Shown here piece by piece: positions 55,479 to 56,787 of a stretch of 64,000 bases of DNA. Below the pieces are notes generated by a model, which was not told the DNA's origin, did no database searches, and worked only from the letters and a program-made list of their open reading frames with translations. Each line of letters begins with the position of its first letter. Position 1 is the stretch's first letter. The DNA comes from Anaerolineae bacterium (GTDB lineage Bacteria > Chloroflexota > Anaerolineae > S140-20): positions 7,702 to 71,701 of the forward strand of contig JALUTT010000120.1 in NCBI GenBank assembly GCA_027021705.1, read 5' to 3'. The position numbers were made by a program, and so were the translations under genes.

Positions 55479-55515
55479 CTCCTTAACAAGAGCATAAACC
55501 GGCCAGGAGCAAGCT

Positions 55516-55968
55516 ATGTCTGAAGCTATCCTCAACGAGGCAGAAGCAGAGCGCATCATCAGCCTACCAAAACGCATTGTGGGGTCGAAACAGTGGCATC
55601 AACGTAATGATGGCAACTGGTACATAGAAATGCCGGTCGAAGCATCGGAGCAACTACCTCTTCGCCTTTACGGGCGTTTCAACCCGCGCACAGGTAACTA
55701 CACCTTCATCCTCTTTTATGGTCGCCTGAACTTGCGACGCCTTGATATGGGGAAAACCCATCACAACCCAGGCTGTGACAATGTGGGTTCTCCCCACAAA
55801 CACACGTGGACCGACCGTTTCCGCGACAAGTTAGCTTACATGCCCTCGGATATGAAAGCGACAGACTCCCTTGGCGATATTTTCGCGAAGTTCTTGGCTG
55901 AATGCAACATCGTCTTGGAAGGTCGTTTCAAGGAGCCCCCTCAAAGCTACCAGAGGAGGTTCATATGA
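55516..55968 (+). CDS. Hypothetical protein (150 aa) in a lower-G+C cassette
   Basis: Coding-like ORF containing HNPGCDNVGSPHKHTW. Stop overlaps the next ATG (ATGA). No family recognised. Confidence 0.55.
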   Translation: MSEAILNEAEAERIISLPKRIVGSKQWHQRNDGNWYIEMPVEASEQLPLRLYGRFNPRTGNYTFILFYGRLNLRRLDMGKTHHNPGCDNVGSPHKHTWTDRFRDKLAYMPSDMKATDSLGDIFAKFLAECNIVLEGRFKEPPQSYQRRFI

Positions 55969-56753
55969 ACTGCGGACAACTGAGAGAAAAGGCGTTGACC
56001 CAGTTGCCCCTGCTATTCACCTGCAGCGAGGAAGACGACTACCTGAAGATCACCACGCCGTATCTCCACCCTGATGGCGACTACATTGACCTTTATCTGG
56101 TCGAACTGCCCACCGGCCTGTATCTCACCGATCTGGGCGAGACAATAGGCTATCTGGCCGACCACGGCATCCGCCTCGAACAATCGCCCAAACGACGAAA
56201 GGCCGTCGAAGACGTGCTCCTCACCCACGGCGTGGAGATGTTCCGAGGCGAGTTGCGGGTGCCTTTGGACACCTGGGAGAAAGCCGCCTGGGCTGTGACA
56301 CGCTTGAGTCAGGCGATTGTCCAGATCAGCGATCTGGTTTTCAGCCTGCGTCTAGGTGCTCTGAGCACCTTCAAGGAGGAAGTGGAGGAGTACTGGATTG
56401 AGTCTCAGATCCCCTATGAGGCAGATTACCGGGTGATCGGCGGTTCTGGCGAGACCTATACGGTTGATTTCTACATCTCTCTGCCCCGTCGTCCTTGGTT
56501 AGTCGAAACGCTGTCCAGCCAGTCTCGTGGTTACGCCAACACCCTGGTTAGCCGGGTGATCCGCACCTGGCACGACCTGCTCCGGGCAGATGGACGTTAT
56601 GGCTATGTTTCCCTTGTGGATGACTCCACGGATGTCTGGAAAGCAGAGTGGTTTGATCAACTGGCAGCCCTCTCCGAGGTTGTTGTCTGGAGTGAGCGTG
56701 AACGGTTGTTGGCCCTTTTCGGGGCGAGAGACCTGTTGCAGGATCGCCGTTGA
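55965..56753 (+). CDS. Hypothetical protein (262 aa) in a lower-G+C cassette, translationally coupled to the upstream gene
   Basis: AGAGGAGG RBS inside the upstream gene. No family recognised with confidence. Confidence 0.55.
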   Translation: MNCGQLREKALTQLPLLFTCSEEDDYLKITTPYLHPDGDYIDLYLVELPTGLYLTDLGETIGYLADHGIRLEQSPKRRKAVEDVLLTHGVEMFRGELRVPLDTWEKAAWAVTRLSQAIVQISDLVFSLRLGALSTFKEEVEEYWIESQIPYEADYRVIGGSGETYTVDFYISLPRRPWLVETLSSQSRGYANTLVSRVIRTWHDLLRADGRYGYVSLVDDSTDVWKAEWFDQLAALSEVVVWSERERLLALFGARDLLQDRR

Positions 56754-56787
56754 GATTGGAGCCCGCGAGTAGAGGGAGATTCCGAAT

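Follow-up and report, generated by a model that had tools for sequence, protein, structure and literature searches.

We identified a two-gene cassette immediately upstream of gyrA in a 64,000-nucleotide stretch of DNA from an Anaerolineae bacterium (GenBank assembly GCA_027021705.1, contig JALUTT010000120.1, positions 7,702 to 71,701 of the forward strand), hereafter called the window. Gene A (55516-55968, + strand) encodes a basic protein of 150 aa (isoelectric point, pI, 9.2) and gene B (55965-56753, +) an acidic protein of 262 aa (pI 4.8). The genes overlap in an ATGA (55965-55968, +), where the TGA of A shares bases with the ATG of B, pointing to translational coupling. Each is preceded by a Shine-Dalgarno element: AGGAG at 55505-55509 (+), read from the sequence 6 nt before the ATG of A, and AGAGGAGG at 55952-55959 (+), within the 3' end of A and 5 nt before the ATG of B. 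Upstream, a gene whose product has two LysM domains (54651-55478) is separated from A by a gap of 37 nt and is itself preceded by a TPR/SLT lytic transglycosylase gene (hereafter the SLT gene); downstream, gyrA (56788-59202) follows B after 34 nt. A preliminary description of this DNA, made from the sequence alone, had given both open reading frames (ORFs) with exact coordinates, and the overlap, the ribosome-binding site (RBS) within A, the peptide HNPGCDNVGSPHKHTW (residues 83-98 of A) and the two flanking genes were all located as it had reported them.

The cassette lies in a low-GC tract (55480-56790, +) with a G+C content (GC) of 0.51-0.58 against 0.68-0.74 in the flanks, which very probably marks the imported segment. 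Overall, its GC is 55.0% (51.2% for A and 57.0% for B) against a window mean of 66.1%, the lowest value among all 1238-nt segments of the 64 kb (z = -3.5). The third codon position deviates most: its GC (GC3) is 0.60 in A and 0.68 in B, compared with 0.88-0.91 in gyrA, alaS and the SLT gene, and the two genes have the lowest GC3 relative to the 46 greedy non-overlapping ORFs of the window that served as the reference set (mean 0.827, sd 0.067). This pattern indicates a mutational or ancestral bias and not an effect of protein composition. The lower GC had been judged by eye in the preliminary description, along with a high frequency of five codons, four of which are indeed enriched in A and B when their shares are compared with those in gyrA, the SLT gene and alaS together: AAA (8/15 vs 1/52), TAT (9/20 vs 7/92), GAT (14/28 vs 31/144) and ATA (3/20 vs 1/84). 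The fifth, TTT, is not enriched (2/15 vs 5/75).

Both proteins could be assigned to families, although the preliminary description had found no assignable motifs in either. Protein A matches Pfam DUF6978 (PF22398; 6.7e-17), and protein B matches Pfam DUF1828 (PF08861; 2.7e-16, residues 31-121) and carries in addition a nuclease-fold domain; an NCBIfam scan returned no match for A or B. In the PADLOC collection, A matches PDLC04533 (PDC-M24A) at 9.9e-25, with residues 6-148 on profile positions 2-149 of 151, and two additional PDC-M24A models, while B matches PDLC04540 (PDC-M24B) at 3.4e-67, with residues 11-249 on profile positions 9-250 of 256, and PDLC04539 at 4.2e-31. Weaker PHROG matches, all to families of unknown function, indicate relatives in phage genomes. 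According to Payne et al. 2024 (bioRxiv 10.1101/2024.01.29.577857, Table S8), PDC-M24 is cassette CAS_00098, with the order FAM_00129>>FAM_00065, and belongs to a set of 145 untested phage defence candidates that were predicted from their embedding in BREX, DISARM or type I restriction-modification (R-M) loci. The adjacency of A and B on the same strand (+) with a 4-nt overlap agrees with this order. The window copy thus shows every sequence and architecture feature of PDC-M24 and departs from it in the embedding alone, which was the criterion of discovery and is not required of every homologue; embedding of this kind was found at three of the homologous loci that we fetched (L106, L107 and L108). 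It is very probable that the cassette is a horizontally acquired member of the PDC-M24 family, a kind that is already catalogued and to which the window adds another copy. A literature search found no paper mentioning PDC-M24, PF08861 or PF22398, and the mentions of DUF1828 and DUF6978 were incidental.

To score the pairing of A and B, hidden Markov models from our own alignments were run over all fetched loci. Gene A stood immediately upstream of a full-length B at 13 of 14 independent loci, showing that the pair does travel together in other genomes. The paired loci span Chloroflexota, Planctomycetota, Actinomycetota, Acidobacteriota, Streptococcus phages and their satellites, and a Halorubrum virus, and they include Thermoguttaceae, Rubrobacter marinus, Acidobacteriota and other metagenome-assembled genomes (MAGs), and IMG/VR proviruses. 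In Streptococcus phage MissF the pair corresponds to gp72/gp73 in the lysogeny module, beside the integrase, and in the haloarchaeal Halorubrum virus Humcor1 to gp200/gp205. Streptococcus satellite phage Javan357 (MK448450.1) carries an unannotated A-like ORF (L091:1951-2433) upstream of the B homologue JavanS357_0014; this ORF has the family motif RH-x-NPD...G-x-H-x-H, and so the satellite encodes the full pair although B alone is annotated. The 4-nt overlap of the window copy recurs at five loci (L007, L008, L108, L109 and L111), and overlaps of 1-19 nt, also seen in L106, L107, L113 and phage MissF, are the rule. Translational coupling this tight, kept throughout the family, points to a stoichiometric complex, whichever role each protein has. 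The family is moderately large: an exhaustive profile search (E <= 1e-3) gave 723 clusters at 50% identity for A alone, in essentially all of which the protein stands alone, at a length of about 150 aa, so that domain fusions offer no clue. IMG/VR yielded only nine B loci and three A loci, suggesting that the PDC-M24 family is mainly chromosomal.

Around the pair one usually finds genes of type I R-M systems, integrases or further defence candidates. Three A members (L106-L108) that were chosen only for their long contigs all had B downstream (3/3) and all lay inside or beside a type I R-M locus (3/3). Their neighbours match PDC-S02, PDC-S06, PDC-S15, DarG-like, ZorA-like and ImmA-type peptidase proteins. 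In L107 the gene order is HsdM-HsdS-AAA_13-A-B-x-HsdR, and in Rubrobacter the pair comes after a helix-turn-helix (HTH) gene and a tyrosine integrase. The preliminary description had suggested, among other things, a toxin-antitoxin (TA) or abortive-infection pair, and as a prediction such a defence or TA-like reading gains support from the PDC-M24A and PDC-M24B matches and from finding A and B linked in satellites and prophage lysogeny modules as well as in type I R-M loci and defence islands. The R-M operon of L107 stacks several candidate systems: a PDC-S06 AAA_13 ATPase precedes A, and right after B (L107:9310-9894) there is a 194-aa protein that matches the C-terminal part of PADLOC DarG (2.8e-50).

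Horizontal acquisition is supported by the deviant composition and by several comparisons of the locus with other genomes. Neither A nor B was found within 8 kb of gyrA in 80 gyrA-anchored loci from other genomes (0/80), and none of the 16 other A-B loci is adjacent to gyrA (0/16). The best reference gyrA is just 63-65% identical to that of the window, and in these closest reference genomes the region upstream of gyrA is unconserved, so that this lineage test is negative but coarse. Neither of the outcomes that had been named as speaking against acquisition, an ordinary GC or a conserved position throughout the lineage, was seen in this comparison set, from which close relatives are absent. 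The closest homologues (76-80% identity for B and 72-73% for A) all stand in unrelated contexts: in L109 and L111 the pair follows an Eco57I/MmeI-type methyltransferase-nuclease and a Panacea-domain pair and precedes a B12-radical-SAM gene, and in L113 it is flanked by a Zn-ribbon gene and an SMC/AAA_15 ATPase. DNA similarity to these closest relatives starts at the RBS/ATG of A, with the upstream part limited to a GGAG-type element at the Shine-Dalgarno position, and stops at the C-terminus/stop of B. Their cassettes have a GC of 54-55%, as does the window copy, in hosts of 56-60% GC. The cassette was poorer in GC than its flanks at all 16 other loci (16/16), by 0.013 to 0.124, and the difference in the window is 0.114.

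An identical locus, with a LysM-A junction about 99% identical, recurs in four metagenome assemblies, and two short contigs with an identical A protein share this junction at about 99% identity; this indicates that the insertion occupies one site in every sample of the organism. A metagenome scan for an empty site with the upstream SLT protein gave two short, distant loci, both ending before the junction, and found no cassette-free allele. No convincing direct or inverted repeats, and none beyond chance, flank the cassette, and neither an integrase nor phage structural genes were found near it, the neighbours being housekeeping genes. There is no tRNA gene at 45-64 kb and no Rfam element at the cassette; the sole tRNA of the window, a tRNA-Leu (anticodon TAG; 24672-24756, -), is not associated with it. 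A remnant of a prophage or integrative element, which the preliminary description had also offered, is not supported, since the locus has no integrase, att repeats, tRNA target or phage structural genes and homology stops at the ORF ends. It would appear instead that a bare RBS-to-stop unit of PDC-M24 was dropped into a LysM-gyrA gap of about 70 nt in an uncultured Anaerolineae-like bacterium. In this respect the idea of a horizontally acquired module is supported, and the observation that gave rise to it is confirmed.

The predicted structure of A (pLDDT 88.8, pTM 0.84) combines one helix with a mostly antiparallel sheet and a second helix at the C-terminus. The signature site of the protein (55759-55809, +) reads H82-H-N84-P85 ... 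H94-K-H96-x-W98 and is invariant in two of our alignments (A1 and A3). Over 98 diverse members, H82 is kept in 95%, N84 in 83%, H94 in 98% and H96 in 88%, and further conserved residues are P85, W98, K19, W27 and F126. The signature is also kept in the Streptococcus phage and haloarchaeal virus members. Judged from these sequences, the H/N/H-x-H cluster looks like an active site or a metal- or ligand-binding site. HNH/His-Me, HIT, cupin and carbonic-anhydrase-like readings of the His motif were considered, and none was supported by the fold search.

The AlphaFold model of B (pLDDT 89.2) has two domains. The N-terminal domain (56013-56357, +; about aa 17-131, with Pfam DUF1828 at aa 31-121) has a predicted fold like that of type III secretion chaperones and DUF2170, and across 121 sequences it keeps an acidic cluster of D39, D56 and E59, together with T60. 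The C-terminal domain (56364-56717, +; about aa 134-251) has a predicted restriction-endonuclease-like (PD-(D/E)xK) fold, and over the same sequences E139, G159, S161, F169, S184, W202, D204, D219, D220 and W225 are kept. The alpha-beta-beta-beta-alpha-beta core of the PD-(D/E)xK superfamily is present, but the catalytic D ... (D/E)xK motif on beta-2/beta-3 is degenerate: at position 168, D occurs in 81% of members and N in 17%; only 23% have E at position 181; and position 183, with Leu in 93%, never holds a conserved Lys. B is acidic family-wide (median pI 5.1), in both domains.

Several loci are natural knock-outs of A. In L003, A is absent and B is intact and 72% identical to the window B, with another small gene pair upstream. 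In L004/L005, A is frameshifted and B intact. In L110 (3849-4301), codon 24 of A is changed from CAG to TAG (Q24 stop) and B is again intact; compared with L109 (7552-8004), which comes from a different Joint Genome Institute (JGI) sample, this single C-to-T change is set in sequence that is otherwise 100% identical over the aligned stretch of about 600 nt, and L110 is therefore a strain-level variant of L109 and a natural knock-out of A. The invariant residues of B are retained in all three cases. Conversely, a broken B was found in none of six A-anchored loci (0/6), which makes the asymmetry three losses of A against none of B. Repeated loss of A with B intact leads us to reject the assignment of A as antitoxin and B as toxin. 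The two small genes directly upstream of B in L003 (L003:635-1170) encode a 103-aa ORF product and a DUF2283 protein, which we take to resemble the antitoxin of the DUF4258/DUF2283 TA pair, and they could be either a replacement or a TA module next to B.

Taken together, these results are best explained if the cassette is an imported mobile conflict module of the PDC-M24 type, a candidate anti-phage or TA-like system, and we place the probability of this reading at roughly 60%. Within it, we consider the odds slightly better than even that the biological role is defence against phages or other mobile elements. A possible mechanism can be outlined. A and B, translationally coupled and made together, would form a complex in which A is a small enzymatic effector with the conserved His/Asn/His-x-His pocket, and acidic B would hold A through its secretion-chaperone-like N-domain. 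The nuclease-fold C-domain of B may bind or sense nucleic acid or another cue of infection, upon which B would release A and the infected cell would be arrested. That DUF6978 is a new enzyme fold acting as a toxic effector, kept inactive by a chaperone-like clamp fused to a re-purposed restriction-endonuclease fold, is the most speculative part of this outline, and we regard it as rather unlikely to hold in full.

Several points weigh against the PDC-M24 conflict module as we describe it. The defence role of PDC-M24 is itself a prediction from gene context, for one candidate among 145. The pair in the window lies outside any defence island, with housekeeping genes immediately on either side and the nearest other candidate system 9.4 kb away, and the ORFs examined at 40-64 kb, where the cassette has the SLT gene, the LysM gene, gyrA, a cold-shock domain (CSD) protein and alaS as neighbours, included no R-M genes. 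A promoter scan detected no promoter-like (sigma-70-like) sites, and a terminator scan gave a single terminator-like site, at chance level, inside the LysM gene; expression of the cassette is only inferred, from the start of the essential gene gyrA so close behind B, because of which transcription must traverse the cassette or begin inside it. As for protein A, no fold or sequence relative was found in the PDB or BFVD. In addition, the asymmetry of A loss comprises three events and would equally fit A as a dispensable activator, and the five near-invariant acidic residues in the nuclease-fold domain of B mean that B itself could be the effector.

The last two points lead to the rival explanation that survives best, namely that the mobile defence module is the same but its two proteins have exchanged roles. 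Here B would be a non-canonical PD-(D/E)xK nuclease effector, and A, for example a small enzyme or a metal- or nucleotide-binding protein, would be the sensor or activator that switches B on at infection. The acidic residues of B fit a nuclease effector, but the beta-3 (D/E)xK is not conserved (181 is variable and 183 is Leu), D168 is replaced by Asn in 17% of members, and an acidic domain (median pI about 5) is unusual for one that cleaves DNA. Moreover, the invariant His cluster of A is more like an active site than a passive sensor surface. We therefore judge the reversed arrangement possible but doubtful. The opposite assignment, with A as effector and B as holder and sensor, is modestly favoured on account of the enzyme-like pocket of A, the acidity and chaperone-like domain of B and the degenerate nuclease motif; this preference is tentative, and both assignments are ones that we infer.

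A purely selfish addiction module, persisting by killing upon loss or by stabilising mobile DNA and having no anti-phage role, is less probable still. A compact, coupled and horizontally mobile pair that occurs on satellites, prophages and plasmids would suit such a module, and the loss of one partner alone at three loci is a pattern known from TA decay. On the other hand, a Pfam scan of A and B found no DNA-binding antitoxin domain (HTH, ribbon-helix-helix (RHH) or AbrB), the pair is repeatedly embedded in or beside R-M and other defence genes, an association that defines defence candidates, and the window copy is chromosomal, between essential and housekeeping genes where stabilisation would be pointless.

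The order of a small gene upstream and a larger gene downstream resembles that of most type II TA operons, and in combination with the nuclease fold it might suggest a classical type II system with A as antitoxin and B as nuclease toxin. This is very improbable. At the three loci where A is missing, frameshifted or stop-truncated, B keeps every invariant residue, a state in which cells would be expected to die if B were a toxin held in check by A. The polarity of the window proteins, basic A and acidic B, is the reverse of the usual one, and Pfam and NCBIfam scans for a type II antitoxin domain (HTH, RHH, AbrB or Phd) gave DUF6978 and DUF1828 only. The cassette proteins also do not belong to any known toxin fold or family. 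Finally, a lineage-specific housekeeping pair tied to gyrA or the cell-wall genes, such as a gyrase modulator whose low GC reflects amino-acid composition or expression, would account for a gyrA 34 nt away and probably co-transcribed with the cassette, but it can largely be dismissed given the deviation at third codon positions and the absence of gyrA adjacency at the 16 other A-B loci and of A or B from the 80 gyrA-anchored loci.

Several further features of the window were recorded. Two independent assemblies (L001/L114 and L002, corresponding to window positions 45516-56990 and 50927-56879) break 90-200 nt into gyrA, right after the cassette, and these breaks at the B-gyrA junction may reflect strain heterogeneity or a break in coverage or composition. 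Just 3' of gyrA (59232/59337-59705, +), a gene encodes a treble-clef zinc ribbon (zf_Tbcl) fused to a cold-shock domain; homologues stand at this position in three Anaerolineae/Ardenticatenaceae MAGs (L009, L011 and L014), and thus synteny is seen downstream of gyrA but not upstream of it. The candidate defence pair 9.4 kb upstream of the cassette consists of an ABC ATPase gene (44922-46115, +; AAA_15/AAA_21) with matches to PDC-M55A (5e-54), HEC-03B (8e-54) and NsnB (3e-49), and a low-GC gene for a protein of 161 aa (46125-46610, +; GC 0.58, GC3 0.70) with a weak match to HEC-03A (2.4e-5). A GDP-mannose 4,6-dehydratase gene (41155-43446, +) is split by an intein with a LAGLIDADG homing endonuclease (Intein_splicing 4.5e-14, LAGLIDADG_3) and coincides with a local dip in GC to 0.60-0.62. 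A low-GC protoglobin-domain gene (GC 0.547, GC3 0.67) lies beside an NTP_transf_2 gene and an overlapping 129-aa ORF (16492-17127, 17128-17559 and 17535-17924, all -). The NTP_transf_2 gene (MNT-type nucleotidyltransferase) and the 129-aa ORF could be a TA pair of the HEPN/MNT type.

The interest of the cassette lies in the orphan fold of A and in a PDC-M24 family that lacks characterisation and reaches from bacteria to temperate phages, satellites and a haloarchaeal virus. If the proposed mechanism is true, the family would represent, by its mechanism, a new class of toxin or defence system gated by a chaperone, with no relation to characterised toxin families and widespread in bacteria, archaea and viruses. 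The pattern of natural knock-outs shows that A does not serve to hold B in check as a toxin. In protein A, the testable specifics are the conserved H82/N84/H94/H96 pocket; in B, they are the non-canonical acidic set of the nuclease fold and the chaperone-like N-domain. The analysis thereby makes a defined experiment out of an anonymous database entry. The locus also shows that minimal defence cassettes can land as a bare ORF pair upstream of an essential gene, outside defence islands, and copies placed in this way would be missed by island-based discovery methods.

The cassette shares features with several known systems. Like the chaperone-assisted and toxin-first TA systems (HigBA, HicAB and the tripartite TAC with its SecB-like chaperone), it is a two-gene, overlapping and mobile unit in which the upstream gene is repeatedly the decaying one, and B has a chaperone-type domain. 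In contrast to these systems, it has no sequence or fold tie to known toxin or antitoxin families and no DNA-binding antitoxin domain. The C-domain of B is 9-12% identical to members of the PD-(D/E)xK superfamily (the Can2/Card1 nuclease domains, PspGI/NgoMIV-type restriction endonucleases, XisH-like 2okf and AF1548), but it lacks the beta-3 (D/E)xK, is acidic and has another invariant set (D204, D219-D220 and S184). The N-domain resembles the type III secretion chaperone, DUF2170 (YjfI) and YbjN-like fold, although no secretion system is involved in the window, whose host is Anaerolineae-like, and DUF1828 adds the invariant acidic cluster of D39, D56 and E59. Secretion chaperones are not known to share such an acidic cluster.

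A further parallel is offered by DS-6/HipAD, a validated two-gene defence system in which DS-6B, composed of DUF3037 and DUF1829, is paired with a toxin-like enzyme, which it is proposed to neutralise, and is also proposed to bind DNA (DefensePredictor, PMC13092281). DUF1829, the Pfam entry numbered next to DUF1828, is likewise a domain of unknown function. However, B has no Pfam match to DUF1829 or DUF3037 even at E <= 1, and its partner is DUF6978 and not a HipA kinase, so the parallel with HipAD is one of analogy only. The closest counterpart is PDC-M24 itself. Membership in this family supplies no mechanism, since PDC-M24 is a predicted defence candidate, and the window copy sits between the LysM gene and gyrA, outside any R-M, BREX or DISARM locus. 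Nevertheless, it shares both profile sets nearly end to end, as well as the gene order, strand and tight coupling of PDC-M24, and relatives of the window pair are embedded in type I R-M loci, as were the cassettes by which the family was discovered.

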